DNA of 64,000 nt from an uncultured Chloroflexia bacterium (GCA_963703575.1 CAVPEU010000026.1:65850-129849), one strand, 5' to 3'; positions 4,691 to 62,296 are shown, counted from the stretch's first letter. A program made the numbers and translations. Notes: a model not told the origin generated them from the letters alone.

Positions 4691-4691
4691 G

Positions 4692-5927
4692 TCAGCGCAC
4701 CTCCGGGACAGCGGGCCCGGCAGGCTCCGGCTCGGGCGCCACGGCCTCGACCTCGGGCGCCACGGCCTCGGCGGGCGCCTCCGCCTCGGCGGGCGCCTCC
4801 GCCACGGCAGCCGCCCCCTCCGGCGCGCCGGCGAGCGCGACCGCAGCCCGTCGATCTGCCGCATCACGCCGTTTTCGGACGACGGTCATGCCCGCGCCAT
4901 GGAGCACCGCAAGACCGCCGACCCCGCCGACCAGCGCCGCGCCGACCAGGTCGGCCGTCAGGCCCGGGAACGCGGGCACCGGCGAAGGGAGCCGCAGGTA
5001 GAACGGGCTCATCGCGTCCCAGAAGCCGGGCATCGTGCAGCCGATGCAGCCGTGCCCGGCGCGCACGGGCCAGCTCGTGCCCTGCGCGAAGCGCTTCGAC
5101 GCGCAGTTGCCGAACGCCTCGGGGCCCTTGCACCCCATCTTGTACAGGCACCAGCCCTTCTGGGCGCCCTCGTCACCCCAGGACCGGACGAACTCGCCGA
5201 ACTCGAAGTGGGGCCGCCGTTCGCACTCGTTGTGGATCAGCATCCCGTACGCGAACAGCGGGCGACGCATCATGTCGGTCGCCGGCCACTCCTTGAACGC
5301 GAGGTAGTGGACGATCGTGGCGACCAGGTTCTCGACGTTCACCGGGCAGCCGGGAAGCGCGATCGTGGGCGTGTTCGAGACGACCTCGCGCAGGCTCGCG
5401 CTGCCGGTCACGCCACCCCCGGCGCCGGGCACGCCTCCGTCGAACGCGCACGCCCCGACCGCGATCGTCGCGAGGGCACCGTTGGCCACCTCGCGCACGA
5501 TGTCCACGAACGGCCGCCCGCCGACCAGGCAGAAGGCGCCGCCGGCCGCGGTCGGGATGCCGCCTTCCACCACGACGACGTACCCGTCCGGGTACCGCTC
5601 CATCGCGCTCGTCAGGGACAGGTCCGTCGCGGCGCCGGCCGGGGCCATCAGCGTCTCGTGGTACTCGAGCGAGAGGATGTCCAGCAGCAGCGAGGCGGTC
5701 GAGGGGTCCGGCGCCCGGAGGAAGGCCTCCGTCTCACCGCCGCAGTCCTGGCCGCGCAGCCAGATGACGGGCAGCCGCGGCGCCGTCTCCACCGCCTTCG
5801 CGATCCGCGGCGCGTACGCGGCCGGCAGGGCAAGGGCGGCCGTCATCGCGGTCGTGAACTGGAGGAATGCGCGGCGGGACATCCCGCGCCGAACCAGCGC
5901 GGCATAGATCCCGTCGTCTGCCATCAC
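4692..5927 (-). CDS. hupS: [NiFe] hydrogenase small subunit with Tat signal peptide
   Basis: SRRAFLQF is a twin-arginine motif. The Fe-S cluster cysteine pattern (GCxGC..., CIGCT) is present, followed by a C-terminal TM anchor and an Ala/Pro/Glu-rich repetitive tail. Confidence 0.9.
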   Translation of the reverse strand: MMADDGIYAALVRRGMSRRAFLQFTTAMTAALALPAAYAPRIAKAVETAPRLPVIWLRGQDCGGETEAFLRAPDPSTASLLLDILSLEYHETLMAPAGAATDLSLTSAMERYPDGYVVVVEGGIPTAAGGAFCLVGGRPFVDIVREVANGALATIAVGACAFDGGVPGAGGGVTGSASLREVVSNTPTIALPGCPVNVENLVATIVHYLAFKEWPATDMMRRPLFAYGMLIHNECERRPHFEFGEFVRSWGDEGAQKGWCLYKMGCKGPEAFGNCASKRFAQGTSWPVRAGHGCIGCTMPGFWDAMSPFYLRLPSPVPAFPGLTADLVGAALVGGVGGLAVLHGAGMTVVRKRRDAADRRAAVALAGAPEGAAAVAEAPAEAEAPAEAVAPEVEAVAPEPEPAGPAVPEVR

Positions 5928-6315: not shown

Positions 6316-7825
6316 TCACCCCGGCTGGTTGTCGATCTGCGCCCGCTGCAGCCGGCCGCTGTAGTCCACGTACACGGCCTTCCACTCGGTGAACGTGTCC
6401 AGCGCGGCGTGGCCCGCCTCGCGGTGGCCGTTGCCGGTGTCCTTCCAGCCGCCGAACGGGAGGTGCGTCTCGGCCCCGGTCGTGCCGGCGTTGACGTAGA
6501 CGATGCCGGCCTCGAAGTCGCGCATCGCGCGGAAGGCGGTGTTCACGTCGCGGGTGAAGACGGACGCCGAGAGCCCGTACTTCACCTGGTTCGCGGCCGT
6601 CATCGCCTCCGCGTAGCCGTCGACCGGGACGACGGACAGCACGGGGCCGAAGATCTCCTCCTGGGCGATGGTGGCCATCGGCGCCACGCCCGTGAAGATC
6701 GTCGGGCGGTAGAAATGGCCGTGCTCGAGCCCGGCTCCGGTCGCGCGCTCGCCGCCCGTCACCAGCTCGCCCTCGCGGCGGCCGATGCCGACGTACCGCT
6801 CGACCTTGTCCACCGCCGGGGCGTTGACGAGCGGCCCGACGTCGGTGGCCTCGTCCAGGCCCGGGCCGAGGCGGAGGACCTTCGTGCGCGCCTCCAGCCG
6901 CGCGACCAGGTCGTCGGCCACGGGACCGGTCCACGATCACCCGCGAGCACGCCGTGCAGCGCTGGCCGGCCGTCCCGAACGCCGACCACAGGATCCCGTC
7001 CACGGCGAGGTCCAGGTCCGCGTCCCGGAGCACGACCACCGCGTTCTTGCCGCCGAGCTCCAGGCTCAGGCGCTTGAGCCGGCGTCCGGCGCGCTCCGCG
7101 ATCCCCCGCCCCGTCGCGGACGAGCCCGTGAACGAGATCACGCGCACGTCCGGGCTCTCGACGATCGCGTGCCCCACCTCCGCGCCGGCGCCGGTCACCA
7201 GGTTGACGACGCCGGGCGGGACGCCTGCCTCGTCCATGAGCTCCACCAGGAGGGTGGCGCAGTGCGGCGCGTCGGAGGCGGGCTTGAACACCACCGTGTT
7301 GCCGGTCACCAGCGCGGGCATCAGCTTCCAGCACGGGATCGCCACCGGGAAGTTCCAGGGCGTCACGATTCCGGCCACGCCGATCGGCTGGCGGATGCTC
7401 ATCGCCCACTTGTCCGGGAGCTCGGACGGGACCGTGTCGCCGAACATCCGCCGGCCCTCGCCGGCCATCAGGAACGCGATGTCGATCCCTTCCTGGACGT
7501 CGCCGCGGGCCTCGGTGAGGACCTTGCCCATCTCGCGGGTCATCGCGCGGGCAAGGCGCTCCTTGTGCTCCGCCATGAGCGCGCCGAAGCGATACAGGAT
7601 CTCGCCGCGCCTGGGGGCCGGTGTCGCCTTCCAGGCCGGCAGCGCCTCCTCGGCGGCGTGGATCGCCATGGCGGTGTCCGCGGCGGACCCGGCCTGGAAG
7701 CGGCCCACGATGTCCCGCGTGTCGGCGGGGTTGACGCTGTCGAAGGTCTCGCCGGAGACGCCGTCCACCCAGCGGCCGGCGATGAACAGGCGGAACACGG
7801 GAGCCTCGACGGCGGCCTCGGACAT
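6316..7825 (-). pseudogene. Aldehyde dehydrogenase (NAD(P)+) disrupted by a single-base frameshift near 6925
   Basis: The N-terminal part reads to ...ELGGKNAVVVLRDADLDLAVDGILWSAFGTAGQRCTACSRVIVDRS in one frame. The C-terminal part (V)ADDLVARLEARTKVLRLGPGLDEATDVGPLV... continues in the +1 frame from 6921. The junction gaccggtcccgtggccgac has an extra C in a CCC run. Confidence 0.7.
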
Positions 7826-8009: not shown

Positions 8010-9246
8010 TCAGGCCCGCTCGAAGGCCATCGCGACGGACCCACCGCCCCCCAGGCACAGGGTGGCCATGCCGTACCGGCCCTCGCGGCGGCGCAGCTCG
8101 TGGAGCAGCGTCGCGACGATGCGCGCGCCGCTGGCCCCGATCGGGTGCCCCAGCGCGATCGCCCCGCCGTTCACGTTCACCTTCGACCAGTCGAAGCCGA
8201 GCTCGCGCCCGTCCGCCAGGACCTGGGCGGCGAATGCCTCGTTGATCTCGATCAGGTCGAACGCGTCCGGCCCGAGGCCGGTCCGCGCCTCGAGCCCGCG
8301 GACGCCGTCGACCGGCGCCAGGAACAGCCACCTGGGCGTGACCTCGGCCTGCGCGTACCCGACGATCCGGGCGAGCGGCTTGAGGCCGTACCGCTCGACC
8401 GCCCGCTCCGAGGCGACGACCGTGGCCGCCCCGCCGTCGGTGATGCCCGGCGCGTTGCCCGCGGTGACCGTGCCGGTCGTGGCGGTGCCCCGGTCCTCGC
8501 CGGTCGGGAGGTCGAACACGGGCGCGAGCCGGGCCAGCGCCTCCGGGGTGGTGTCGCGGCGGGGGCTCTCGTCGGTGCTGATGACGGTCTCGCGGCCCTT
8601 CGCGTCGCGGATGGTCACCGGCGCCATCTCGTCGTCGAAGCGGCCGGCGTCCTGGGCCGCGATCGCATTCCGGTGGCTCGCCAGCGCCAGCGCGTCCTGG
8701 TCCTCGCGGCTCACCCCGGCCTTGATCGCCACGCGCTCGGCGTGGGTGCCCATGTGGCAGTCCTCGATCGAGCACCACAGGCCATCGAGCACGGTCGAAA
8801 TCCTCCAGTGTCCCGTTGCCCAGCCGGTAGCCGAAGCGGGCCTTGCGCAGGAGGAACGGCGCCTGGTTCATCGACTCCATGCCGCCCGCGACGTACAGGT
8901 CGCCGTCGCCGGCCTTCACCGAGGCTGCCGCGAACATGATCGCCTTGAGCCCGGAGCCGCAGACGCGGTTGATCGTGGTGGCGGGCGTCGTGTCCGCGAG
9001 GCCGGCCCGCAGGAGCGCCTGGCGTGCCGGGGCCTGGCCCGCGCCGGCCTGCAGCACCTGGCCCATGATCACCTCGTCGATCGGCGCCTCCGCCGGCAGC
9101 CCGGACCGGGTCACCGCCGCGCGGATGGCGGTCGCGCCGAGCTCCACCGCGGGCACGCCCGCCAGCGCGCCCCCGAACTTGCCGATCGGCGTGCGCGCCG
9201 CGCTGACGAGATAGACATGGCCGCTGGGGCCGCTCGTGAGGTCCAT
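8010..9246 (-). pseudogene. Acetyl-CoA acetyltransferase (thiolase) disrupted by a frameshift near 8795
   Basis: The N-frame [26 protein letters not shown]...[11 protein letters not shown]...[10 protein letters not shown] then loses the thiolase sequence. The C-frame (8792 downward) continues [25 protein letters not shown]...[25 protein letters not shown]...[15 protein letters not shown]. Confidence 0.7.
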
Positions 9247-10985: not shown

Positions 10986-11837
10986 GTAGGTGTGGAACCC
11001 GCGGCCCGTCTTCTGGCCGAGATGGCCGGCCGCGACCAGGTCCTCCAGCACGCGCGGTGGCCGGAAGTGTTCCTGGCCGAACCCCTCGTGCAGCACGCGC
11101 ATCACCCCGAGGCAGACGTCCAGGCCGATGAAGTCCGCCAGCTCCAGCGGGCCCATCGGGTGGTTGAGCCCGACCTTCGCCCCGGTGTCGATGTCCTCGG
11201 CCGTGCCCAGGCCCTCCTCGTAGGCCCGCATCGCCTCCGCCAGGAACGGCATCAGGATCCGGTTGACGATGAACCCCGGCCGGTCCGCGGACGCGATGAC
11301 CTGCTTGCCCAGCTCCGCGGCAAGCGCCCGGACCGCGGCCTCCGTCTCGTCGCTGGTGGCGGAACCGCGGATGAGCTCGATCAGCGGCATCACCGGCACG
11401 GGGCTGAAGAAGTGCATCCCGACGAAGCGGGCTCGCCGCTCCTCGGACACCGCCGCCGCCAGCCGGTCGATCGAGATCGAAGACGTGTTGGAGGCAAAGA
11501 TCGCGCCCGCCGGGGCGATCCCGTCGAGCGCCGCCCACAGGCCGGTCTTCACGTCGACATCCTCGAACACGGCCTCGACCACGAGGTCCGCATCGCCGGC
11601 GGCCGCGAGGTCCGAGGTCGCCGCCAGGCGGGCCAGCGTCGCCTCCCGGGCCTCGGGCGACAGCTTCCCCTTCGCGACCGCCCGGTCGAGGTTGCCGGCG
11701 ATCCGGTCTCGCCCGGCCTGCGCCCGCGCGGGATCCGGCTCGTAGATCGTGACGGCCTTGCCGGTCGCGGCATGGACCTGGGCGATCCCGTGCCCCATCA
11801 GGCCGGCACCGGCGACGAACACGCGCTCCATCGTCAT
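10977..11837 (-). CDS. hbd: 3-hydroxybutyryl-CoA dehydrogenase
   Basis: MTMERVFVAGAGLMGHGIAQV is the NAD-binding GxGxxG motif. Hbd/FadB C-terminal domain signatures include NTSSISI and FFSPVPVMPLIELIRG. An AGGAG ribosome-binding site precedes the ATG. Confidence 0.85.
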   Translation of the reverse strand: MTMERVFVAGAGLMGHGIAQVHAATGKAVTIYEPDPARAQAGRDRIAGNLDRAVAKGKLSPEAREATLARLAATSDLAAAGDADLVVEAVFEDVDVKTGLWAALDGIAPAGAIFASNTSSISIDRLAAAVSEERRARFVGMHFFSPVPVMPLIELIRGSATSDETEAAVRALAAELGKQVIASADRPGFIVNRILMPFLAEAMRAYEEGLGTAEDIDTGAKVGLNHPMGPLELADFIGLDVCLGVMRVLHEGFGQEHFRPPRVLEDLVAAGHLGQKTGRGFHTYPR

Positions 11838-12826
11838 CGTGGCTCCTCGCTGCTCAGGGCGGCCAGCAGGCGGTCCGCCGCCGCATACGGATCCAGGTCG
11901 TGGGTGGCGACCGCCGTGATCGCCGCGTCCGTGGCGGGGGCCATGGGCGCGGCCTCCAGGCGCTCCCACAGCCGCTCGACGACCACCGCCCGCACCTGCG
12001 CCGCCGCACGGGCTCGCCGCGCTGCGGCGGTCGCCCCGTCGCCACCGATGGCGCGATGCCGGTCCAGCGCCACCAGCAGCTCCGGGATCCCCTCGCCGGT
12101 GACCGCGGTCGTGACCAGGACCTCCGGCCGCTTGGGCGCCGGTCGGGCCGGGTCCGCGTCACGCGCGGCCGCCGGGACCAGCATCGCGCGCAGCTGGGCC
12201 GCCGTCCGCTGCGCGCCCGGCCGGTCGCCCTTGTTGACCACGACGATGTCCGCGACCTCGAGCAACCCGGCCTTGATCGCCTGGACCTCGTCGCCCATCT
12301 CGGGTGCCTCGAGGACCACCGTCGTGTCGGCGGCCGCCGCGACCTCGACCTCGCTCTGCCCGGTCCCGACCGTCTCGAGCAGCACGACGTCGAACCCGGC
12401 CGCCGCGAGGACGGCGGCTGCGGCCGTGGAGGTCGCCGCAAGCCCCCCGGCGTGCCCTCGCGAAGCCATCGACCGGATGAACACGCCGTCGTCCGCGGCA
12501 TAGGCCTGCATCCGGACGCGGTCTCCCAGCAGCGCGCCGCCGGTGATCGGCGAGCTCGGGTCCACGGCCACGACGGCGACGGTCCGGCCGGCGCGGCGCA
12601 GCTCCGCGATGAGCGCGGCGACCAGCGTGGACTTGCCGGCGCCCGGCGGACCCGTGATCCCGACCAGGTGCGCGGCACCGGCGAACGGGTACAGCCGGCG
12701 CAGGGCGAACTCGGCCAGCGACGTCCGGTTCTCGACGGCGGTCAGGAGCCGCGCAAGCGCGCGCCGATCCCCGCCGCGCGCGGCGTCGGCAAGGGTCGCG
12801 GCGCGCTCCGCCGACGCGTCCGCCAC
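11834..12826 (-). CDS. meaB: Methylmalonyl-CoA mutase-associated G-protein chaperone (MeaB/ArgK family)
   Basis: GITGPPGAGKST is a P-loop. The MeaB-like layout includes VVNKGD. The probable GTG start at 12826 overlaps the hbd start by 4 nt. Confidence 0.8.
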   Translation of the reverse strand: MADASAERAATLADAARGGDRRALARLLTAVENRTSLAEFALRRLYPFAGAAHLVGITGPPGAGKSTLVAALIAELRRAGRTVAVVAVDPSSPITGGALLGDRVRMQAYAADDGVFIRSMASRGHAGGLAATSTAAAAVLAAAGFDVVLLETVGTGQSEVEVAAAADTTVVLEAPEMGDEVQAIKAGLLEVADIVVVNKGDRPGAQRTAAQLRAMLVPAAARDADPARPAPKRPEVLVTTAVTGEGIPELLVALDRHRAIGGDGATAAARRARAAAQVRAVVVERLWERLEAAPMAPATDAAITAVATHDLDPYAAADRLLAALSSEEPR

Positions 12827-12836
12827 GTTACGCGCG

Positions 12837-13241
12837 CTACTCGCGCGGCTTCGCGTTCGCCCGGATGAACTCGGCGACCTCGCGGATCGTCGTTCCCGGC
12901 CCGAACACCCCCGCCACGCCCGCAGCCTTGAGCGGCTCGACGTCATCGTCCGGGATGATCCCGCCGACGGTCACCAGGACGTCGTTCAGGCCTCGCTCGC
13001 GTAGCTGCGCGCACACCCGGGGCACGAGCGTCATGTGGGCGCCCGACAGGATCGACAGGCCCACCACGTCGACGTCCTCCTGGAGCGCCGCGGTCACGAT
13101 CATCTCGGGTGTCTGGCGAAGGCCCGTGTACACGACCTCGAAGCCCTCGTCGCGGAGGCCGCGCGCGAGCACCTTGGCGCCGCGATCGTGGCCGTCGAGG
13201 CCGGGCTTCGCGATCAGGACCTTGAGCGGTCGATCGGTCAT
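12837..13241 (-). CDS. B12-binding small subunit of a split acyl-CoA mutase (IcmB/HcmB/MCM C-terminal-domain-like)
   Basis: [49 protein letters not shown] carries the DxHxxG cobalamin-binding motif. Confidence 0.8.
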
Positions 13242-13326: not shown

Positions 13327-14442
13327 CTACCAGGCGATCCGGAGCACCTGGCCCTGGTGCGGGAAGACGCCGAAGTTCGAGACGTACGCGGCACCGTCGG
13401 GACCGACCGCGACGCCGCCGGGCGCGACCAGGCCGTCCGTCAGCAGCGTGTGCTGCGTCCCGTCCTCCGCGACGCGGACCAGGCGGCCGGTCGGGTCACC
13501 CGACAGCAGGCTGTTGGCCGCGATCTCCAGCACCAGAAGGCTGCCGTCCCGCGCGAAGGCGAGGTCGATGATGTTCGTGAACCCTGTCGCGAACACCTCG
13601 GGCGCATGCCCGGGGACGACCCGGAACACCTTCGCGGCACCCACCGGGAACGGAAACCCCGTCAGCTCGCCCACGTACCAGGCGCCGTCGGGACCCCGGA
13701 CGACCGAGTTCGGGACGGCCTGCATCGGGATCATCGTCCCGGCCGGCAGCCCGAGGAACGCGGGGGCGTCCACCATCGTGTCGGGGAAGACCGCCAGCGT
13801 GGACACGTGCCGGTTGGGCGTCACCCACAGCAGCGCGTTCGCGCCCGCATCGGCGACGGCCACGCCCTGCGGCGAGCCGGCCGCCGAGTAGGGGTTGGTA
13901 TCGTAGGCGCCGCCGTCCGGGTTTGCCAGGCGCTCGTACGCCGACACGTCTGCCCAGCGCGCCCACGCACCGGTGCGCAGGTTCGCGCGGACCAGCCACC
14001 CGGCCGCCTGCACCTCGGCGGGCAGTCCCGCCCGGACGTCAGGATCCGCGCCGAGGTTGATCGGCACGTAGGCGTTGCCGAGGCCACGGAACGTGACATC
14101 GCTGGGCCCGCCGGCCGAGAAGCCGGCGGGGTCGGCCGCGGACGGCAACCCGGTGACGACCCGGCGCTGCGATCCGGCACTGATGCGGGTGATCGCACCA
14201 CTCAGGCCGAAGCATTGCTGGCCTTCGGGGCCCTGCCGGCACGCGAGGTCGCCCCCGACCCCCGCCTCCGCGACATACAGGGCACCGTCCGGACCGAACG
14301 CCAGGCCGCGCGGGTTGTCGAGGCCGCTGGCAACAACCTGGACCGATGGTCCGGCCGCGCTGACTGGTACGGCCGCGATCGCCAGTGCCATGAGGGCGCT
14401 GGCAAGCGCGGCGAAAGCTGGATGCCTGGGACGCAGCGGCAC
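13327..14442 (-). CDS. Secreted ScyD/ScyE-like beta-propeller protein
   Basis: A signal peptide ([26 protein letters not shown]) is followed by [21 protein letters not shown] repeats. The GTG start at 14442 has an AGGAGG site 5 nt upstream. Confidence 0.55.
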
Positions 14443-14646
14443 CGTGTTCCTCCTGAGCTCCGGGACGGGCGGGGCTCGCCATTGGCTCGACGCGACCCGA
14501 GCGATCCGGGTTGTGGGTCGCGCGTCAACGCCTCCCGTCGGGGAACGCGGCGGAGTATGCGGGATCGGGTGATGCTGCGCCCACGCAGACCACGTGGTGC
14601 AACGGAGTCCGGTGCGCGGACGCACCGATCGCCGGCTGCGCCCGCG

Positions 14647-17349: not shown

Positions 17350-18564
17350 CTACGCCTGGACCGGCAGCGAGAGGATCCCGCCCACCAGCGCGAGCAGCGC
17401 GATCGCCGCCCCGATCGCGAGCCCCGGCGTGACGAACGGATCCCACGCCCGGCGCACGGGAAGTGGCTCTCGGCGACCCAGCTCCAGGCCGCGCGTGTAG
17501 TGCGTCAGGGCCGCGAACGCGTAGACGGCGGGTGCCGCCGCGATCGCCTCCACCAGGAACGTGAGCGTGCCCAGCGCGAACACGAGCGCGGCGCCAACCG
17601 GCACCGCGAGCGCTGGCGGGACACCATGCTGCAGGCCGGCCCCGATCGCCACCCGGAACACGGTATCCAGCCCGACGCTGAGCCCGAGGACCACGATGAG
17701 CTGCGACAGCACCCCGAACAGCATCACCAGCACCGCCAGCGGGGGACGCGCCCCCACCAGGCGCAACGAGCGGCGGATGGCGTCCACGATCCCCACCTCG
17801 CCGATGACGATCCCGGCCGTCACGTACACGAAGGGCGCCCCCGCGAGAAGCCCGACGGCCAGCGAGATCCCGAAATCCACGGCCGCCACCGGCCCGATCA
17901 GGGCGTCCGCGACGGAGCTGGCCGCCAGCGTCGCGGACGAGGTGACGGTGCCGACCACCAGCTGGGCGCCGAGCACGCGCCAGAACCGTCGCCTCACGAC
18001 GGCGATCGACTCGCGGAGCCGGAGCGGCCGGCCCTCGGCGCGTCCACCGATGACCGCCGTGGCGAGCACGCGTGCATCCACGCTTGCCGCCAGGTAGCCC
18101 GGCACCGCGGGGAGCACCGCGAGCCCCAGCCAGCCCGCCCAGGCGCCGGGCTCCACGTTCGCCGCGAGCGCATCGTCGCCCACCGTCAGCAGGACCAGCC
18201 CGAACAGGATCGCGAGCGGACCGACCGTCAGCAGCATCACGAAGCCGATGTAGAAGGAGGCGGAACGCAGCCCGGCGTCGGTCCGGGTCAGCAGGTCCAG
18301 GGCGGTCGCGACCAGCCGGCGCGTGCCCAGCGGAATCGACAGGACAGCCTCGCTCACGATGGGCGCCGCGGTCGCGGCGGCACCCGACGACACGGGCGAC
18401 GAAGGAGGCAGCAACGGGCCCACGAACGTGCCGTCGAACACGCTTCGCACGGGCACGACCGGCGGCGCAGGCTGCGGAGGCTGCGACAACGGGACCGCGG
18501 GAGCCTCCGCGGCTGCCTCCGCGGCGGCCTCCGCGCGAGCCTCCGCCACATGCTCCCCGCTCAT
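17350..18564 (-). CDS. Polytopic membrane protein of unknown function
   Basis: About 8 predicted hydrophobic helices. The N-terminus is AEA-rich (AEARAEAAAEAAAEAPA). It overlaps the upstream threonine dehydratase gene by 4 nt. Confidence 0.5.
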   Translation of the reverse strand: MSGEHVAEARAEAAAEAAAEAPAVPLSQPPQPAPPVVPVRSVFDGTFVGPLLPPSSPVSSGAAATAAPIVSEAVLSIPLGTRRLVATALDLLTRTDAGLRSASFYIGFVMLLTVGPLAILFGLVLLTVGDDALAANVEPGAWAGWLGLAVLPAVPGYLAASVDARVLATAVIGGRAEGRPLRLRESIAVVRRRFWRVLGAQLVVGTVTSSATLAASSVADALIGPVAAVDFGISLAVGLLAGAPFVYVTAGIVIGEVGIVDAIRRSLRLVGARPPLAVLVMLFGVLSQLIVVLGLSVGLDTVFRVAIGAGLQHGVPPALAVPVGAALVFALGTLTFLVEAIAAAPAVYAFAALTHYTRGLELGRREPLPVRRAWDPFVTPGLAIGAAIALLALVGGILSLPVQA

Positions 18565-19577
18565 CGGTCCGCGGCAAGCGGCCCGGCGGCGGCGACCAGG
18601 TCCGCCAGCCGGTCGATCGCGACGTTCCCGCCGGACAGGATCACGCACACCCGGTCACCGCCCCTGAGCGGGATCGCGCCCGACAGCACGGCGGCAAGCG
18701 CGGCCGCGCCGGCCGGCTCGACCACCTGCTTGAGCCGCTCCAGGGCGAACCGGAGCCCGGCCAGGATCGTCGCGTCATCGACCAGGACGACGTCGTCGAC
18801 GTACCGCCGCGCGATGTCGATCGCGAGCACGCCGGCCTCGGCCGCACCCAGGCCGTCCGCGACGCTGTGCGGCGTGATCCGTACCGGCTCACCGGCATCG
18901 ATCCCCCTGCGCAGGGCGTCCGAGTTCACGGGCTCCACGCCGTACATGCGCACCGACGGACGGCTCTCCTTGAGCGCCACGGCCAGCCCGCCGATCAGCC
19001 CCCCACCGCCGACGGCCACGACGACGACGTCCACGTCCGGCAGGTCCTCCAGGATCTCCAGGCCGCACGACCCGTTCCCGATCAGCACTTCGGGATCGTC
19101 GTAGGGGTGGACCAGGGTGAGGCCGCGCTCCGCGCGCAGCTGCTCGACGTAGGCGGCTGACTCCCCCACGTGGGCGCCGTGGAGCACGACGTCGGCGCCG
19201 TACTCCAGGCAGGCGGCCACCTTGGACGCGACGGCGCCCTCCGGCATCACCACCGTGACCGGGACGCCGGCCTCACGTCCGGCCCACGCGTAGGCCTGGC
19301 CGGCATTCCCGGCCGAGATCGTGACCGCGCCCCGCCGGCGCTCTTCCGGCGTGAGCGTGGACATCCGCGCGAGGGCCGCCCGCGGCTTGAACGAACCCGT
19401 CTTCTGGAGGTGCTCCGCCTTGAGATACAGCCGCCCGTCGCCGAGCGACGTGCCCGAGGCAGCGCCGGCCACGCGGGCCGCCGTCGCCGATGACAGCATC
19501 GGGGTGTGGTGGACGCGGCCGCGCAACAGCACCCGCATCTCGCGGATCGCGGCCAGGTCCACGCGCAGATCGGTCAT
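18561..19577 (-). CDS. Threonine dehydratase / threonine ammonia-lyase (PLP-dependent)
   Basis: KAEHLQKTGSFKPRAA contains the PLP-lysine motif. GGGGLIGG is a glycine-rich loop. Confidence 0.85.
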   Translation of the reverse strand: MTDLRVDLAAIREMRVLLRGRVHHTPMLSSATAARVAGAASGTSLGDGRLYLKAEHLQKTGSFKPRAALARMSTLTPEERRRGAVTISAGNAGQAYAWAGREAGVPVTVVMPEGAVASKVAACLEYGADVVLHGAHVGESAAYVEQLRAERGLTLVHPYDDPEVLIGNGSCGLEILEDLPDVDVVVVAVGGGGLIGGLAVALKESRPSVRMYGVEPVNSDALRRGIDAGEPVRITPHSVADGLGAAEAGVLAIDIARRYVDDVVLVDDATILAGLRFALERLKQVVEPAGAAALAAVLSGAIPLRGGDRVCVILSGGNVAIDRLADLVAAAGPLAADR

Positions 19578-21380: not shown

Positions 21381-23174
<1,794 letters not shown>

Positions 23175-23314
23175 GGCCACGACTCTAGCACGCGGTCCGC
23201 TCCGGTCTCCGGGGCCGGGGTGCGGCCTCATCCTCGGCCCACCGGTCGCGGCAGGCGAGTGGCGCGCCACGCCTCCGGCGGCGAGCGGCGGCGCGCCGCG
23301 CCTCCGGCGGCGGC

Positions 23315-23935
23315 CTACCTCGAGGCGAACGTCTCCAGCGCCGCGAGCACCTTCGCGTCGCCGAGGTCGGCGGCCAGCAGCACGTTCACGGTCCCCGGCT
23401 CCGTGGACGGCCACGCGACGATCGTCTGGCCGGTGCCGTCCGTCTGGAGCACGTCCAGGCGGCTCGCAGCCCTCCCGCCGACGGTGGATTCGGCGATCTG
23501 CGCCTTCTCGGTCTTGCTGTTGGCGCGTGCGCCGGCGGCATAGAAGGCGATCATCGCCGAGGGCGTGAGGCCCTCGGCCTGGAACACGGCGACAGTCAGC
23601 GCCGTCGTCCCGCCAAGATCCCAGGTGGCGCCCGCGAACCGCAGCTCCGCGACCCCGGTCGAAGCCAGCGTCCCGAGCGCGCTCGTCGTGCAGCTGCGCC
23701 CGGAGTCCACGTTGACCGGTGCCTGGCCCTCGTACGTCCTGGGCAAGGTCGCCTCCAGGTCCGGGTAGGCGCCCGGCTGGCGGCCGTCGGTCGTGCACGC
23801 GCTGGCCGGGTCGAAGCTGGTCACCGGGATGGATGGGCCGCAGGCGGCGATGACGAGGCTGAAGACGACGGCCACCAGGCCGACCGGACGGACGACTGTG
23901 GGCGTGACGGGGCGTGACGGGGCGTGACGGGGCAT
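23315..23935 (-). CDS. Putative lipoprotein
   Basis: [16 protein letters not shown] is a signal plus lipobox. The 5' end carries a 10 bp x3 tandem repeat (GGGCGTGACG) encoding [11 protein letters not shown]. Confidence 0.5.
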
Positions 23936-24446
23936 GCGATGAGCGTACCGGCGGCGCCCGGAACCTGCCGCGACGTGGCTCGCGCGCGGGCGGACGTGAC
24001 GCGGCCGACGGCTCGGAGATCTGCCGGCCGCGCGGCCCATTGACCTGTTGACCCATGACCCATGACCCCATCGTCCCGGCGGTGCCAGCATGCGCCTGAC
24101 CATCGCACGGCACCGACCCCGGACCTGCCGCCCATTGCCTCCGGTCCGGCGCAGTCGTACGGTGACGCCGCGTTCGACACGCGCCGACCCCACGACGAAC
24201 CGGGGGATACCTGGGGCGTCGGTCACGGGTCCGGGGCTGGACGACCCGGCCGTCGGGGACGCTCGACGGCCCGGGGGTTCCTCGTCCCGGATCACGAGCC
24301 GAGTAACCAAGGACGGACCGGCCAGCAGGCCCGGACGTGGGGCGGCAGCACTCATCGCACATCATCCGCGCCCCCGGCGAGTTTCCGCCGAGGGCGCGAT
24401 CATTGCGTGCCTCCGCACGGTGGCGTGCCGGCTCGGCGCGGTGGCC

Positions 24447-29403: not shown

Positions 29404-30414
29404 TCAGCGGCGCTGCGCGACGATCGCGGAGGCGCCCGATGGCAGGTCGATCAGCTCTGGCGCCGGCACGTCCGCGGCCGCGAACCAGCCCAGGGCCTCG
29501 GATCGGGTGACCAGCCGGGTTCCCTGGAGCAGCTCGTCCAGCTGCATGCCCGCGATCAGCTCCGCGTGACGCGTTCGCAGCTCGTCGGGGTCCGACGGCA
29601 GGTACCAGTCCAGCGCCACCAGCCAGCCCCCCGGCCGCACGGCCGCCCAGGCGGAGCGGATCGCCGCCGCCGGGTCCGGGAGCTGGTGGAGCGCGTACTG
29701 GAAGTAGGCGAGCTGGACCTCGCCCTCGTGGCCGACGGCATCGACATCGCCCTGCTCGATCGTGATCCGGCCGGCCAGCCCGGCCGCCTCGACGTTGGCG
29801 CGCGCCCGGGTCACGGAGTCCGGCTCGAACTCCACGCCGGTCAGCACGACCTCCGGGAAGCGGCGCGCCATCGCCAGCAGCCACCGACCACCACCGCAGT
29901 GGACATCCAGCACCCGCTCGCCCGGACGCAGGTCCGCGACCAGCTGGGGCAGCGCCGCGAGGACCTCCTGGAAGAACACCGCGATGTCCTGGACCGTGAG
30001 CCGCTCGATCGCCGCGCGATACCGGTCCGGGCGCCCGGTGACCGGCCGGCCGGTCCGGAACACGTCCACCAGGCTGCCGTAGTCCAGGCTGCCCGTGGCC
30101 GCGTGGAGGTACTGGCCTCCGAGGTACTCGGCGCGATCGGCGTCCAGGAGCACCGCGGCGACGTCCTCGGGCATGTGGAGCCGGCCCTCGCCGATCTCCA
30201 GGAGGTCGTGCGCGTCGGCGCCCCAGGCCCAGCTGTCGACCAGCCGGGCCTCGGTGCCGGTCGCCGCGGCCAGCTCCTCGACCGTCAGGCCGGTACGCCC
30301 GGCGGCTCGCAGCCGCTCGAACAGCCCGAGCTCCAGGCCGACGTACACCAGCCACGTCCGGTAGAAGCCTCCCAGGCTGGCGACCAGGTCATCGAAGCGG
30401 TCGTCGAGGCTCAT
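29404..30414 (-). CDS. Class I SAM-dependent (O-)methyltransferase with N-terminal winged-helix dimerisation domain
   Basis: VLDVHCGGGRWLLAMA is motif I. A plant-OMT-like N-terminal HTH is present. Confidence 0.7.
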   Translation of the reverse strand: MSLDDRFDDLVASLGGFYRTWLVYVGLELGLFERLRAAGRTGLTVEELAAATGTEARLVDSWAWGADAHDLLEIGEGRLHMPEDVAAVLLDADRAEYLGGQYLHAATGSLDYGSLVDVFRTGRPVTGRPDRYRAAIERLTVQDIAVFFQEVLAALPQLVADLRPGERVLDVHCGGGRWLLAMARRFPEVVLTGVEFEPDSVTRARANVEAAGLAGRITIEQGDVDAVGHEGEVQLAYFQYALHQLPDPAAAIRSAWAAVRPGGWLVALDWYLPSDPDELRTRHAELIAGMQLDELLQGTRLVTRSEALGWFAAADVPAPELIDLPSGASAIVAQRR

Positions 30415-30538
30415 GCCCCGATTGTGACATGCGCGTGAGCCGCAAGGAACATGCTAGCGGCAAGTAACACGTAGTGGCTCGGAGGTGCTACGATCCGGCC
30501 AGCTTCCCCTCCGCCTATCGCCCGGAGCCAACCTCGCA

Positions 30539-32608
30539 ATGCAGATGCTCGCCCGCCCCATCGGTCTCGGTCTCGCCGCCCGCGGCGACGTGGATGAGGT
30601 CACCGGCTGGGCGAAGCAGGCCCGTGACGGCGGCCTCGACTCCGTCTGGGTCCACGACAGCTACTTCGAGCGCGACGGCGTCAGCTTCACGACGGCCATC
30701 GCGCAGGCCATCGCTGCCGAGGACGACGGTGACGAGGCGGGCTTCCGGGTCGCCCTGGGGGCCGTGAACCCGTTCACGCGCCATCCGGTCGTGCTGGCGA
30801 TGACCGGCTCCGCCCTGGACGAGATCCTGCCCGGGCGCATCGTGATGGGGATCGGCACCGGCCTGCCCCTCCGCCTCAGGCAGATGGGGATCCCGTACGA
30901 CCCCGACACCGCCATCGAGGTCGTGTCCGGGGCGATGGACCAGATGCGCGCCCTGTGGGCCGGCGAGCGGCTCCCGTCCGCGACCCCGGGACTGCCGCCC
31001 ATCCAGCCGATGTTCCCGCCCACCCACCGGATCCCGCTCGTGATCGCGGCCTATCGCAAGGCGTTCGTGGAGCTGGCCGGCCGCAAGGCCGACGGCTACC
31101 TCGCCCGACCGGCGGAGTCGATCCCCTCCCTGGGCGGGATCATCGAGCGGCTCCGGGCATCCGCCGAGGCCGCCGGGCGCGATCCCCTGTCGATCGAGAC
31201 CGCGGGCTACCTCCTGTCGCTCGTGGACAAGACGCGGCGCGAGGCACTGAACCGGGCGAAGCGCGAGCCGTTCGTGATCTACATGATGGCCATCCTGTCG
31301 GATGTGTCCCTCCAGCGCGCGGGCTTCGACGCGGAGCTGCGCGACCGGATCGCCGCGGCCTGGCGGGTCGAGGACTACACGACGGCGGGCAACCTCATCC
31401 CGGACGAGCTGCTGGACGCGTTCATGCTGTGCGGCACCCGCGAGGACGTCGCCGCGGGCGCGATGGCGTTCCACGCGCGGGCGGGCCTCCAGCTGCCGTT
31501 GCTCCAGCCGGTGCTCCAGGAGGACCGGCAGATCGAGGAGCTGATCGCCGCCGCCGCGGTCTACGCGCAGGTCGCGCAGGCTGCCCCCGCCCGCGAGCCG
31601 GGCGTGGCGGCGACCGTGTCCGCCTCCGGCGCGCCGGAGGCCGGGAGCGGCGCCCTAGCCCCCTCCCTCGCGGACGATCGGACCCTCGGGTCCGGCGAGC
31701 GCCTCCGGCGGCGAGCGGGCGCGCTGTGGGAGATCCTGCGGCCGTTCGCGTTCACGGCCTCGATCGTCCCCGTCCTCGCCGGCAGCGCCCTGGCCTGGGC
31801 GGATGGCCTGTGGAGCTGGCCACCGTTCGTCGCCGCCCTCGTCGCCGGGGTGCTCCTGCACTCCGGGACCAACATCGTCAACGAGGTGTACGACGTCCGG
31901 AAGGGCATCGACACGATCACCAGCCCACGCGCCAGCCACGCCATCGTGGAGGGACGCATGAGCGAGCGAAACGCGCTGGTCGCCGCGGCGGTCGCGTTCG
32001 CGCTGGCCACCGCCGTGGGCGTGTACCTCGCCTGGCTGCGGGGCCCCGCCATCGTTGCCCTGGGGCTCCTCGGGCTCGTCGCCGGCTGGGGATACACGGC
32101 GCCGCCGCTCGAGTACAAGAACCGCGCCCTGGGCCTGCCGCTGGTGTTCCTGCTCATGGGCCCGCTGATGACCGTGGGCGGCTACTTCGCCGTCAGCGGC
32201 GCGTGGTCCGGGACCGCGCTCGTGCTCTCGGTCCCGGTGGGACTGCTGGTGGCGGCGATCCTCCACGGCAACGAGTGGCGCGATATCCGCGAGGACACCC
32301 GGGCCGGGATCTCGACGCTGTCCGCCCGGGTCGGGCGGCAGTGGGCGCACTACGGCTACGTGGGCCTGGTCCTGGGCGCCTACATGGTGCTCGCCCTGTC
32401 CGTGATCGCGCGCATCCTGCCGCCGGCGACCATGCTGGCCGTCCTGTCGCTGCCGTTCCTGGCCCAGGTCATCCGCTCGGCGGAGCTGGGGGCCACCGGC
32501 CAAGCGCGCGCGATCGCGATGATCGACCTCCAGACCGCTCGGCTGCACATGACCTTCGGCCTGCTCCTGGTGCTGGGCCTGGTGCTGTCGAGGGTGATGG
32601 GTGGCTAG
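30539..32608 (+). CDS. In-frame fusion of an LLM-class (F420/flavin-dependent luciferase-like) oxidoreductase to a UbiA/MenA-family aromatic prenyltransferase
   Basis: Residues 1-340 carry the LLM TIM-barrel (GLDSVWVHDSY..., GIGTG). A roughly 45 aa Ala/Pro/Gly linker follows. Residues 390-690 have 8-9 TM helices with NIVNEVYDVRKGID (NDxxDxxxD-type) and a second Asp-rich region. No stop separates the two parts. Confidence 0.6.
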   Translation: MQMLARPIGLGLAARGDVDEVTGWAKQARDGGLDSVWVHDSYFERDGVSFTTAIAQAIAAEDDGDEAGFRVALGAVNPFTRHPVVLAMTGSALDEILPGRIVMGIGTGLPLRLRQMGIPYDPDTAIEVVSGAMDQMRALWAGERLPSATPGLPPIQPMFPPTHRIPLVIAAYRKAFVELAGRKADGYLARPAESIPSLGGIIERLRASAEAAGRDPLSIETAGYLLSLVDKTRREALNRAKREPFVIYMMAILSDVSLQRAGFDAELRDRIAAAWRVEDYTTAGNLIPDELLDAFMLCGTREDVAAGAMAFHARAGLQLPLLQPVLQEDRQIEELIAAAAVYAQVAQAAPAREPGVAATVSASGAPEAGSGALAPSLADDRTLGSGERLRRRAGALWEILRPFAFTASIVPVLAGSALAWADGLWSWPPFVAALVAGVLLHSGTNIVNEVYDVRKGIDTITSPRASHAIVEGRMSERNALVAAAVAFALATAVGVYLAWLRGPAIVALGLLGLVAGWGYTAPPLEYKNRALGLPLVFLLMGPLMTVGGYFAVSGAWSGTALVLSVPVGLLVAAILHGNEWRDIREDTRAGISTLSARVGRQWAHYGYVGLVLGAYMVLALSVIARILPPATMLAVLSLPFLAQVIRSAELGATGQARAIAMIDLQTARLHMTFGLLLVLGLVLSRVMGG

Positions 32609-33299
32609 CGGCGACGATGGCCCCGATCTGCCCGGGGTGACTCGCCGCGTGGCGCCCGGGGCGCTCGCGGTCGGGCTCGTCGCGGCGCAGGCGGCGTTCG
32701 CGGCGACGTTCCGCGGCCCGCGCGAGCGGTTCTGGACGCGGATGACGTACACCGGGCTCGGGCTGGGCTCGCTCGCGCTCGCCGCCAGCCCGCCGGCACG
32801 CCGGCTGCGGATCGGGCCGAAGGAGGTCGGGCTCGGCCTCGTCTCGGCCGGGACCCTGTACCTCACGTTCAAGGCCGGCGACGTCTTCGCCCGCCGGTTC
32901 GTCCCGCGCGGCGACGCCCAGATCCGGGACATCTACACGCTGCGCACGCTCCGCCCGAAGGAGGAGGTCGCCGCCCGGCTGGCGACGGTCATCGGGCCGG
33001 CCGAGGAGGTGTTCTGGCGCGGCCTCGTCCAGGAGGCGCTGATGGCCCGCTACGGGCGCTGGCCGGGTGCCGCGCTGGCGGCCATGGCGTACGGCGGGGT
33101 CCACATCGTCACCGGCAACTTCACGCTGTTCGGCGCGGCGGGGATCGCGGGCGCGCACTGGTGCACGCTGTACGCGGCGGGGGTCCCGCTGGGTGCGCTG
33201 GTCGTGAGCCACGTGGCCTGGGACGTGTGGATCTTCCTCGTCCAGCCCACGGGCGAGATCACGCCGCTGGCTCCCCTCGACGCGACCACGACCGCCTGA
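32601..33299 (+). CDS. CPBP-family intramembrane glutamic endopeptidase (CAAX protease-like)
   Basis: EEVFWRGLVQ is the EExxxR motif, and conserved His residues lie in FGAAGIAGAHW/SHVAWD. The GTG start overlaps the upstream gene by 8 nt. Confidence 0.7.
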   Translation: MASGDDGPDLPGVTRRVAPGALAVGLVAAQAAFAATFRGPRERFWTRMTYTGLGLGSLALAASPPARRLRIGPKEVGLGLVSAGTLYLTFKAGDVFARRFVPRGDAQIRDIYTLRTLRPKEEVAARLATVIGPAEEVFWRGLVQEALMARYGRWPGAALAAMAYGGVHIVTGNFTLFGAAGIAGAHWCTLYAAGVPLGALVVSHVAWDVWIFLVQPTGEITPLAPLDATTTA

Positions 33300-33330: not shown

Positions 33331-33924
33331 GTGTTGTGGATGGTGATGGACGACGCCGAGCTCACCGAACACCTCGCACGCGACCTCGACGGCTCGTTCG
33401 AGATCCTCGTCCGCGCCCACGTGGATCGCTGCCACGGGATCGCGCTGCGCGTCCTGGGAAACCCGCACGATGCCGAGGAGGTCACGCAGGACGCGCTGGT
33501 CAGGGCCTACCGGGCGCTCGAGGGCTGGCCCCCCGGGCGGATCCGGGAGCTCCGCCTGCGGCCCTGGCTCGCGACGATCGTCGTGAACCTGTGCCGGAAC
33601 CGCGCCCGGCGCCACGCGCCGCCGACGACGCCGCTGGCGCCGCTGGTCGAGGCCGGCGCCGAGCCGGCCGCGGATGCGGCCGGGGACCCGGACCGCCAGG
33701 CGGCGCGCGCGGCCGAGCGCGAGCAGCTGGCGTCGCTCCTCGCCGGGCTGCCGGACCGCTACCGCGTGCCGGTCGTCCTGCGCCACGTGGACGGCCTCTC
33801 GTATGCCGAGCTGGCCGAGGCCCTCGGCCGGCCCGAGGGAACGCTCAAGGCCCAGGTCCACCGGGGTCTCGCGCTCCTGCGGGAGGCCGCTGCCGGGACC
33901 GAGCTCGAGGAGCTGATCGCATGA
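33331..33924 (+). CDS. ECF (sigma-70 family) RNA polymerase sigma factor
   Basis: The sigma-2 region reads AEEVTQDALVRAYRAL. The sigma-4 region reads VLRHVDGLSYAELAEALGRPEGTLKAQVHRGL. Confidence 0.8.
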   Translation: MLWMVMDDAELTEHLARDLDGSFEILVRAHVDRCHGIALRVLGNPHDAEEVTQDALVRAYRALEGWPPGRIRELRLRPWLATIVVNLCRNRARRHAPPTTPLAPLVEAGAEPAADAAGDPDRQAARAAEREQLASLLAGLPDRYRVPVVLRHVDGLSYAELAEALGRPEGTLKAQVHRGLALLREAAAGTELEELIA

Positions 33925-34727
33925 CTCGAAACGCCTGCCTTGCCGACGACGCCGCCGGGGGCCTCTCGTCGCTGGCCGTCCCCGCGCCCGCCCACGTCGC
34001 CGAGGACGTGCTGGCCGAGGTGGGCCTGGCCGACCGCATGGCGCCGATCGAATCGCCGCTCGGGACGGTGTGGGTGGCCTGGAACGGCCGCGGCGTATCC
34101 GAGGTCGTGCTGGCCGAGGACGGCCCGTCCGCCGCGGCCCGCCACGAGACGCGGGTCGGGCGCCGGACGTCGCCGGCGGCGTCCCTGCCCCCGACCCTGG
34201 CCGACGCCGTCTCGCGGCGCCTCGCCGGGGAGCGGCGCGTGCGCATCCCGCTGGACCTGCGCGGCCGGTCCGGGTTCGAGGTCGTCGTGTGGACCAAGGC
34301 GCTGGACATCCCGCGCGGCGAGGTCCGGCCATACGGCTGGATCGCGGCGGAGATCGGGCGGCCGAAGGCGGTCCGGGCCGTGGGCACGGCGCTCGGACGC
34401 AATCCGGTGCCGCTCGTCGTCCCGTGCCACCGCGTCGTGCGCACGGACGGGTCGATCGGCCAATACAGCCTGGGCGGTCCCGGCAACAAGCGGGCCATGC
34501 TGGCGGCCGAGGGGCTGGACCCCGACGCGCTCGAGGGCGCCGCGCGGCGCGGGGAGCGGCTGCTCGCGTCCGCGACCACCGGGATCGTGTGCTGGCCGAC
34601 GTGCCGCAACGCGAAGCGCATCGAGGCTCGCAACCGGGTGCCGTTCCGCACGCTTCGCGAGGCGACCGCCGCCGGCTACCGTGCCTGCCGGGTCTGCCGC
34701 CCGACGGCGATCTCGGTCGCGGCCTGA
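33921..34727 (+). CDS. Methylated-DNA-[protein]-cysteine S-methyltransferase (Ogt/MGMT) with a C-terminal Ada-type Cys4 zinc domain
   Basis: The PCHRVV active site is present. The C-terminal domain VCWPTCRNAKRIEARNRVPFRTLREATAAGYRACRVCRP resembles the Ada methylphosphotriester-repair Zn domain. Its ATG overlaps the sigma-factor stop (ATGA). Confidence 0.75.
   Translation: MTRNACLADDAAGGLSSLAVPAPAHVAEDVLAEVGLADRMAPIESPLGTVWVAWNGRGVSEVVLAEDGPSAAARHETRVGRRTSPAASLPPTLADAVSRRLAGERRVRIPLDLRGRSGFEVVVWTKALDIPRGEVRPYGWIAAEIGRPKAVRAVGTALGRNPVPLVVPCHRVVRTDGSIGQYSLGGPGNKRAMLAAEGLDPDALEGAARRGERLLASATTGIVCWPTCRNAKRIEARNRVPFRTLREATAAGYRACRVCRPTAISVAA

Positions 34728-60292: not shown

Positions 60293-60293
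<1 letters not shown>
59247..60293 (+). CDS. ABC-2 type transporter permease
   Basis: Six TM helices. Translationally coupled on both sides (ATGA). Confidence 0.7.

Positions 60294-62296
<2,003 letters not shown>

Follow-up and report, generated by a model that had tools for sequence, protein, structure and literature searches.

MenA, a 1,4-dihydroxy-2-naphthoate (DHNA) polyprenyltransferase that puts the lipid tail on vitamin-K-type quinones, and its animal homologue UBIAD1, a menadiol prenyltransferase, belong to the UbiA superfamily and have about nine transmembrane (TM) helices and two cytoplasmic Asp-rich motifs; in the solved structures of the UbiA family the active site lies on the cytoplasmic side of the membrane. 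UBIAD1 uses reduced menadiol, and NDC1/NdbB, whose dedicated task in biosynthesis is to bring a prenyl-naphthoquinone back to the quinol, reduces demethylphylloquinone before methylation. Among enzymes that depend on the cofactor F420, Ddn and the FDOR-A group are F420H2:menaquinone reductases (PMC8498797). In a phylogeny of the luciferase-like monooxygenase (LLM) family, Mer, the F420-dependent methylene-tetrahydromethanopterin reductase, and the lipid ketoreductase fPKR fall into a clade of reductases that use F420H2 (PMC6279831), which places the closest characterized relative, Mer, and not the LLM domain described here. Here, we analyzed a 64,000-nt stretch of DNA from an uncultured Chloroflexia bacterium (GCA_963703575.1, CAVPEU010000026.1:65850-129849), hereafter the window, with a G+C content of about 73%. 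Near its middle lies a single open reading frame (ORF) that fuses an N-terminal LLM domain to a C-terminal MenA-type UbiA domain and overlaps a gene of the CPBP/Rce1 family of type II CAAX prenyl endopeptidases.

The fusion shares its superfamily, helix number, and two Asp-rich motifs with MenA and UBIAD1, which are its best NCBIfam and best structural matches, respectively, and close relatives of its UbiA domain are followed by a true UbiE/MenG gene. It differs from both in carrying an additional 340-aa LLM domain, present in no characterized MenA or UBIAD1, and in scoring under every MenA equivalog cutoff; unlike MenA, it is paired with a CPBP gene and lies outside a men operon. With the Mer/fPKR branch of F420 reductases it shares the TIM barrel, and Mer supplies its best matches in the PDB, but the residues that serve catalysis and pterin binding in Mer are replaced or probably replaced, the barrel forms one protein with a membrane enzyme, and the window of this bacterial host shows no sign of tetrahydromethanopterin metabolism. 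Ddn/FDOR-A (split beta-barrel) and NDC1/NdbB (a type II NADH dehydrogenase) are precedents in the proposed function only, differing in fold from the TIM barrel and being in no case fused to a prenyltransferase, although PNPOx-type domains do occur on related UbiAs. The CPBP partner resembles Rce1 in its Pfam match and in its EExxxR, xxxxH, and HxxxD motifs, whereas its family is short (~200 to 230 aa) and has no evident prenylated protein substrate.

Our preferred reading, to which we would assign a probability of roughly 0.45, is that the protein is the MenA-type prenyltransferase of this lineage, into which a cytoplasmic hydride-transfer domain has been built, one that would set the quinone/quinol state of the head group. 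The superfamilies of all the parts are well known, and fusion of domains that are neighbors in a pathway is common in general; what appears to be new is a lineage-wide, conserved MenA-type enzyme that carries an F420-type reductase domain of its own, set within a wider module of UbiA and CPBP.

An in-frame fusion carried throughout Ca. Limnocylindria

A first-pass annotation of the window had described one reading frame in which an LLM-class TIM barrel of about 340 aa is joined, through an Ala/Pro/Gly-rich linker without a stop, to a nine-TM prenyltransferase bearing NxxNExxDxxxGxD and a second Asp-rich motif, with a CPBP protease gene overlapping its end by 8 nt. Each of these elements was recovered. 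The ORF of 689 aa runs from an ATG at 30539 to a TAG at 32606-32608, and domain prediction places both Pfam families above their gathering cutoffs: Bac_luciferase (PF00296) at aa 14 to 313 with 140.5 bits versus 27.9 (1e-40), and UbiA (PF01040) at aa 409 to 643 with 109.9 bits versus 34.2 (1.7e-31). About nine TM helices lie between aa 399 and 687 in a hydropathy scan (not a dedicated topology tool), both Asp-rich motifs are present, at N445 to D458 and N578 to D586, and the 8-nt overlap is exact, with the GTG start of a conserved CPBP partner reaching back over the TAG of the fusion in the junction sequence. An alternative upstream GTG of the same ORF, at 30485, finds no support among the homologues; since the N termini of all of these read MxxLARPIGLG, we take ATG 30539 to be the real start. 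The linker begins AVYAQVAQAAPAREPGVAATVSASGAPEAGSGALAPSLADD, contains no stop codon, and varies in both length and sequence among homologues, whose whole proteins span 675 to 765 aa. G+C content at third codon positions (GC3) stays between 0.92 and 1.00 in one frame across every 150-nt block of the ORF, the block at 31589 included.

Other genomes, where the first-pass annotation had proposed to look for the architecture, carry it abundantly. A protein search returned more than 120 full-length clusters at 73 to 86% identity, all with both Pfam domains and all, where a source is named, from Chloroflexota or Candidatus Limnocylindrales metagenome-assembled genomes (MAGs). In a genome scan with one genome per species, 379 genomes held a relative, and the 80 best loci were analyzed: the in-frame, full-length fusion was found in 80/80 (66 to 82% identity), in Chloroflexota/Limnocylindria MAGs save one labeled Sulfomarinibacteraceae, and one carrier is the closed 3.1-Mb chromosome OY970185.1. 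A metagenome set contributed 80 further contigs, and in each of the 74 that had enough sequence for both domains, these lay in one uninterrupted frame (55 to 80% identity to the window). The fusion is the standard form across the whole Chloroflexota class Ca. Limnocylindria (379 species genomes with a relative). Median identity to the window at the metagenome loci was 64.5% for the LLM and 64.3% for the UbiA domain, and among five near relatives the values were 85 to 88% and 79 to 82%. Two domains conserved to the same degree around a variable linker are what a genuine two-domain protein would show, and the fusion is real and under selection.

Three apparent variants were set aside: the in-frame stop of L097 is its natural stop codon, and P0127 (“53%, 673 aa”) and P0318 (450 aa) are frameshifted copies. 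No split form, with LLM and UbiA as neighboring genes, was found, and a metagenome scan with P0140, the closest stand-alone LLM protein, as the query gave only fused genes. As two other genes of the window appear truncated or frameshifted and these two database relatives of the fusion are visibly frameshifted, assembly errors do exist in such data. A joining of two ordinary genes by such an error has, even so, a vanishingly small probability, given in-frame fusions at over 150 loci that are independent of one another and stem from many projects and assemblers, the closed chromosome among them, and a GC3 that is uniform across the linker. A stop or frameshift in the linker, by which the first-pass annotation had envisaged the gene falling into two, occurs in none of these loci; assembly errors in such data break the fusion rather than create it. 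The proposal that the architecture was undescribed stands in part. We found no paper on the fused architecture, on quinones or F420 in Limnocylindria, or on a link between CPBP and menaquinone, in a literature collection that was incomplete; the architecture is, on the other side, not rare but class-wide, and databases already give such proteins the automatic label “LLM class flavin-dependent oxidoreductase” or “DHNA octaprenyltransferase,” though they are not characterized.

Domain assignment and predicted topology

The NCBIfam matches of the LLM domain at E < 1e-9 were F420 classes only, with Mer the best and NP1902A, MSMEG_2249, Rv3093c, MSMEG_2256, Rv2161c, CPS_4043, Rv3520c, MSMEG_4879, and ArgArg_F420 following. 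No FMN-type (flavin mononucleotide) family was among the 25 best NCBIfam matches of the window protein, and the domain passes, on these sub-cutoff matches, as nearer to the F420-dependent than to the FMN-dependent LLM subfamilies. The best PDB match was the Mer-F420 complex 1z69 (1.9e-27), with Mer of Methanocaldococcus jannaschii (jMer; 8qpl) at 1.1e-24; the strong matches were Mer proteins throughout, and the list also includes the lipid-acting hydroxymycolic acid dehydrogenase 9fp4 (1.3e-10). F420 production has been confirmed in Chloroflexi (PMC8498797). We regard the LLM domain as probably F420-dependent.

Residue roles were taken from jMer, in jMer numbering, where Glu6 is catalytic and Asp96 binds the pterin (PMC11094777), and positions were transferred through a HMMER alignment. 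Asp96 corresponds to an invariant Leu109 in the fusion, and Glu6, which lies just outside the local alignment, corresponds by offset probably to an invariant Gly11. G61-V62, where jMer has its non-prolyl cis-peptide, the backstop behind the deazaflavin, aligns with an invariant and likewise non-prolyl G74-A75, a cis conformation not being readable from sequence. Numerous further invariant residues of the homologue alignment lie at barrel-end positions. Gln178 of the same study was dropped as a test position, as the count along the aligned chain gives N178. With both Mer equivalog cutoffs missed (NF002619, 129.9 versus 276; TIGR03555, 102.7 versus 348.7) and the pterin-binding residue replaced, the domain is by these measures Mer-like but not Mer, and its substrate pocket is predicted to be more hydrophobic than that of Mer.

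A hydrophobic pocket bears on what the domain would reduce. The loss of Asp96 to an invariant Leu109 would also suit an enzyme acting on the lipid part of the substrate, namely an F420H2-dependent reductase of a double bond or keto group of the polyprenyl chain that yields a partly saturated or otherwise modified menaquinone: in outcome like MenJ, in enzyme family like fPKR/fHMAD. The grouping of Mer with fPKR (PMC6279831) and the match to 9fp4 (1.3e-10) are in keeping with this, and a tether holding the barrel at the membrane surface would go well with a lipid substrate. Still, an ordinary polyprenyl chain has no keto group. We know of no LLM enzyme that acts on isolated isoprenoid double bonds, the known prenyl reductases being the FAD-dependent GGR/MenJ enzymes, and the PNPOx domains found on related UbiAs (see below) resemble instead the fold class of the known F420H2:quinone reductases (PMC8498797). 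On balance we consider lipid reduction unlikely.

The closest stand-alone LLM protein, P0140 (48% identity), is annotated as Mer by JGI and is encoded on L172 (1-2503) between another LLM gene and an amidohydrolase-like gene; from these neighbors, Mer-like LLMs of its subtype appear to work also in soluble contexts unrelated to prenyltransferases. Its match to the FMN-dependent TIGR04020 (3.8e-16), together with the Pfam family name “luciferase-like monooxygenase” and the flavin-dependent label used in databases, speaks for an FMN-dependent monooxygenase that would act on the aromatic substrate or product and give a hydroxylated or otherwise oxygenated prenyl-quinone. Against it, F420 classes fill all LLM matches at E < 1e-9, the strong PDB matches are all Mer, and an ORF-family comparison revealed no conserved flavin reductase gene near the fusion, which leaves an FMN-dependent monooxygenase improbable, a step below lipid reduction. 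Because the family matches at E < 1e-9 are all of F420 classes, oxygenation, one of the two chemistries suggested in the first-pass annotation, seems less likely than hydride transfer.

The apparent replacement of the catalytic Glu6 by Gly11 (offset from the alignment) could also be taken to mean that the barrel is a non-catalytic scaffold or regulatory module on the prenyltransferase, in line with the HTH_17, Cupin_2, and unassigned N-terminal domains that related UbiAs carry. We consider this very unlikely: the LLM domain is conserved at least as well as the UbiA domain in both comparisons given above, many barrel-end residues are invariant, and loss of Mer-substrate residues is what would be expected of an enzyme with another substrate.

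For the UbiA domain, the best NCBIfam matches were MenA equivalogs and PRK05951 “prenyltransferase,” all sub-cutoff, and the only solved UbiA-family structure matched was UBIAD1 (8djk, 2.5e-24). The first Asp-rich motif is spelled N445-I-V-N-E-V-Y-D452-V-R-K-G-I-D458; N445, N448, E449, D452, G456, and D458 are invariant among 43 homologues, and the motif aligns with the NxxN(D/E)xxD of related MenA-type proteins. That of UBIAD1, NxxNTYYDxxKGID, resembles the NxxNExYDxxKGID of the fusion. In the second motif N578, R581, D582, and D586 are invariant in the same alignment, and the motif aligns with the NxxRDxxxD of relatives and of UBIAD1. The UbiA domain is plausibly the MenA-type, menaquinone-class prenyltransferase of this lineage, its acceptor being judged from relatives that adjoin UbiE/MenG. 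Since the segment before TM1 (ERLRRRAGALWE) and both Asp-motif loops are rich in Lys/Arg, and the short loops of the opposite side are not, the prediction is a cytoplasmic location for the N terminus, the LLM domain, and both Asp-rich loops, which would put the LLM barrel on the same membrane face as the prenyltransferase active site.

The CPBP partner, unfused relatives, and parallel fusions

The downstream gene matches the Rce1-like family PF02517 with 40.3 bits versus a cutoff of 22.4 (4e-10) and falls below all NCBIfam CPBP subfamily cutoffs. It is the only always-present neighbor of the fusion, being directly downstream at 80 of 81 genome-set loci with room for it (the exception is a scoring artifact at a contig end) and at 45/45 such metagenome loci. 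Of 52 ORF calls, 40 show this same 8-nt overlap, a recurrence that suggests translational coupling of the two genes. The motifs AEEVFWRG, YGGVH, and SHVAWD are kept in 61/62 partners under a loose pattern match, and are shared by the CPBP partners of unfused and PNPOx-fused UbiA genes; the sole pattern exception, the CPBP of L168, reads ADEIFWRG in a seven-partner alignment that places the true motif positions. With its catalytic motifs kept, the CPBP protein is, as far as gene order and sequence tell, an obligatory partner of this UbiA clade.

The closest UbiA relatives are stand-alone proteins of about 300 aa at 39 to 50% identity. In three of the five whose contexts were inspected (L083 of the Chloroflexota, L168, and L170), an orthologous CPBP gene follows directly, touching or overlapping in two; in the other two (L084, Armatimonadota; L085, Chloroflexi), the following gene is a true UbiE/MenG methyltransferase (TIGR01934, 258 and 226 bits versus a cutoff of 158). 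A distance tree intermixes the CPBP-linked and UbiE-linked UbiAs in one clade (45 to 60% identity), with the fused clade as its sister. When the PNPOx-fused L171 is added to the three unfused loci, coding regions touch or overlap in 3/4. As unfused and PNPOx-fused UbiAs are likewise followed by CPBP, a MenA-type prenyltransferase and a CPBP protein form a conserved two-gene module well beyond the fusion.

Related UbiA domains (32 to 40% identity) carry other N-terminal domains. (i) The PNPOx-UbiA family comprises about 20 clusters, and its N-terminal domains best match F420-dependent PPOX classes, weakly (E of 1e-4 to 5e-7). (ii) A Cupin_2-UbiA form, cluster P0199, comes from Gemmatimonas sp. 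SG8_28 (Gemmatimonadota) and metagenomes. (iii) HTH_17-UbiA proteins (P0157/P0290/P0292), with an N-terminal domain of DNA-binding type, come from Chloroflexi/Dehalococcoidia, and a true UbiE/MenG gene and another UbiA gene come after them. The fusion itself has, at five Limnocylindria loci, a second MenA-like UbiA paralogue beside it (~460 to 470 aa, with the canonical NDxxD motif); at one of these, L167, a PNPOx-like gene (best match TIGR03618, F420-dependent PPOX class, 5e-11) precedes this paralogue, the two genes standing immediately upstream of the fusion. For the paralogue's 160-aa N-terminal domain there was no Pfam or PDB match and no likeness to the neighboring PNPOx protein. Two unrelated folds, LLM and PNPOx, each typical of reductases that use F420 or a flavin, have been joined independently to MenA-type enzymes that share the CPBP partner.

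That UbiA and CPBP stay paired in fused, PNPOx-fused, and unfused lineages alike, their start and stop codons overlapping, would also fit a different acceptor altogether: the pair might prenylate and cleave an aromatic metabolite or, in a bacterial parallel to CaaX processing, a peptide or protein, with the LLM or PNPOx domain as a tailoring reductase of the kind found in some RiPP pathways. The retained EExxxR, xxxxH, and HxxxD motifs of the CPBP protein and the missed MenA equivalog cutoffs are in favor, and F420-dependent LLM and FDOR reductases do tailor peptide natural products. TpnL is the example in PMC8498797. The intermixing of CPBP-linked with UbiE/MenG-linked UbiAs at 45 to 60% identity argues against such an acceptor, as does a single conserved locus in 379 species with housekeeping synteny, which is unlike secondary metabolism. 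The ORF-family comparison, covering ORFs of at least 70 aa, brought no conserved gene for a small precursor peptide to notice, and the gap upstream of the fused gene measures only about 70 to 120 bp. We judge a non-quinone acceptor to be about as improbable as the FMN-dependent monooxygenase.

The remaining neighborhood of the fusion is less constant (Table 1). The divergent methyltransferase family lies immediately upstream at 26 of 81 loci, the place being taken elsewhere by a GNAT gene or an ABC transporter; the wider synteny is of housekeeping type (dnaK, grpE, hrcA, lepA, an extracytoplasmic function [ECF] sigma factor, and acyl-CoA dehydrogenase). Downstream of CPBP in the window come an ECF-type sigma-70 gene (33331-33924, +) and, at about 33940-34727 (+), a gene for a protein in which an Ada zinc-binding domain accompanies the DNA-binding domain of a methylguanine-DNA-methyltransferase (PCHRV motif); the order CPBP, ECF sigma, PCHRV/Ada protein recurs in about 17 to 27 related loci. 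MenG/UbiE was not seen beside the fused gene at the loci with inspected context; it adjoins stand-alone and HTH-fused relatives at 39 to 45% identity. Promoter and terminator scans found nothing.

Table 1. Features of the fused gene and its surroundings (window coordinates), and related UbiA genes at other loci (locus coordinates)
Feature	Location	Strand	Remarks
Fused LLM-UbiA gene	30539..32608	+	Single ORF, 689 aa; two Pfam domains; full-length homologues at 55-86% identity, >150 loci
LLM TIM-barrel domain, N-terminal, aa 1-340	30539..31558	+	PF00296, 1e-40; Mer-like; predicted cytoplasmic
Interdomain linker, Ala/Pro/Gly-rich, aa ~341-390	31559..31708	+	Gaps and non-conserved columns in homologue alignments; GC3 0.94
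UbiA-superfamily prenyltransferase domain, C-terminal, aa 391-689	31709..32605	+	PF01040; MenA/UBIAD1 branch; ~9 TM
First Asp-rich motif, N445 IVNEVYDVRKGI D458	31871..31912	+	Predicted cytoplasmic TM2-TM3 loop
Second Asp-rich motif, N578 EWRDIRE D586	32270..32296	+	Predicted cytoplasmic TM6-TM7 loop
CPBP/Rce1-like intramembrane glutamic protease family gene, 232 aa, GTG start	32601..33299	+	PF02517
Class I methyltransferase, weak N-terminal O-methyltransferase dimerization match	29404..30414	-	Pfam/NCBIfam; divergent, context only
Unfused UbiA + CPBP	L083 8001-9587		CPBP immediately downstream
Unfused UbiA + CPBP	L168 7001-8538		CPBP immediately downstream
Unfused UbiA + CPBP	L170 1683-3283		CPBP immediately downstream
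PNPOx-fused UbiA + CPBP	L171 8001-9958		Overlapping CPBP downstream
Second UbiA paralogue	L167 8112-9979 (= L011 9155-10912); L007 10146-11564; L015; L036; L067		Adjoining the fusion

Several genes elsewhere in the window were recorded in passing. An aldehyde dehydrogenase ORF (6316-6921, -) covers only positions 281 to 461 of its Pfam profile, and a thiolase ORF (8010-8792, -) begins at profile position 144; the rest of either gene did not turn up in the frames tried, and the two genes are possibly truncated or frameshifted, either through assembly indels or as pseudogenes. A 994-aa protein (21381-24365, -) has a methylmalonyl-CoA mutase domain at aa 494 to 986 only, its first ~490 aa having no match at E <= 1e-5, and may be a fused IcmF-like mutase; a MeaB GTPase gene (11834-12946, -) lies about 8 kb from it. 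Long ORFs with coding-like GC3 and no Pfam match at the thresholds used are found at 13327-14625 (-), 17350-18648 (-), and 55775-58288 (+), an 837-aa protein included. Two further long ORFs of this kind, 59993-62296 (+) and 60152-61960 (-), overlap on opposite strands, and at most one of them is real.

Proposed function and its meaning for quinone biosynthesis

Within the preferred reading, Mg2+ held by the two cytoplasm-facing Asp-rich loops of the UbiA domain would ionize a polyprenyl diphosphate, and the domain would join this chain to a (naphtho)hydroquinone head group rich in electrons, a substrate suggested by the UbiE/MenG-adjacent relatives. The flexible linker would tether the LLM barrel to the N terminus of the prenyltransferase, on the active-site side of the membrane, where the barrel would bind F420H2 and, as the most likely step, pass a hydride to a naphthoquinone head group to give the quinol. 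Two versions can be envisaged: the quinol may itself be the prenyl acceptor, as with UBIAD1 and menadiol, or the demethylmenaquinone product may be re-reduced for the following step, as with NDC1/NdbB ahead of MenG in phylloquinone synthesis. The main argument for a redox step functionally coupled to prenylation is an indirect one and comes from the independent LLM and PNPOx fusions. The idea of such coupling, already put forward in the first-pass annotation for a prenylated naphthoquinone, gains from the PNPOx-UbiA fusions and the UbiE/MenG-adjacent relatives in its reductive form; its oxygenation form is the less likely one.

A number of observations weigh against hydride transfer to a quinone by a MenA-type enzyme. 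We know of no LLM-family enzyme that reduces quinones, and those F420 quinone reductases that are known are split beta-barrel proteins. All NCBIfam F420-LLM matches lie under their own curated cutoffs, and the MenA cutoffs are missed as well (NF004749, 160.5 versus 277; NF004751, 150 versus 264; TIGR00751, 77.5 versus 102.15). Genes of the men, mqn, and F420-biosynthesis pathways were found neither in the window nor within about 10 kb on each side in the related loci with annotated genes, no LLM gene lies near the closest unfused UbiA-CPBP loci, and no UbiA gene adjoins P0140. The HTH_17, Cupin_2, and unassigned 160-aa N-terminal fusions are not redox domains, which weakens the coupling argument somewhat, and the N terminus of this UbiA clade may simply tolerate additions. 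Finally, AlphaFold2, run on the 43-sequence alignment, gave a poor model (pLDDT 55.9, pTM 0.32) with no domain-packing information, as the homologues in that alignment are 76 to 86% identical.

On the side of a link to quinones stands a [NiFe] hydrogenase cluster at 2136-5927 (-) of the window, with genes for the small subunit (4692-5927), the large one (2924-4867), and a membrane subunit of cytochrome b561 type (2136-3230). Membrane-bound uptake hydrogenases with a cytochrome b feed a membrane quinone pool, and the presence of such a subunit beside the [NiFe] hydrogenase therefore points to quinone-dependent respiration in this MAG, the oxidation of H2 being coupled to the pool.

More speculatively, and with a probability that we would place level with that of lipid reduction, the F420-type reductase domain (LLM in Limnocylindria, PNPOx-type elsewhere), the MenA/UBIAD1-type UbiA, and the intact CPBP protein could constitute a three-part module for redox-gated prenylation outside the known menaquinone pathways. 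Such a module might salvage or remodel oxidized naphthoquinone head groups; in another version, the CPBP protein would process a prenylated substrate, and the system would be the bacterial equivalent of prenylation with subsequent cleavage by Rce1.

Limnocylindria are abundant, uncultured Chloroflexota of soil and freshwater. The tight and widely conserved pairing of a MenA-type enzyme with CPBP, of which we found no report, offers a concrete, testable way into what a bacterial CPBP family does. If the preferred reading is true, the fusion would link an LLM-type F420 enzyme to quinone biosynthesis for the first time and would widen the known roles of F420 in aerobic bacteria. It would also mean that these organisms control the redox state of the head group at prenylation itself, through the prenyltransferase's own hydride-transfer domain, a job for which animals (UBIAD1, menadiol) and plants and cyanobacteria (NDC1/NdbB) use separate enzymes.

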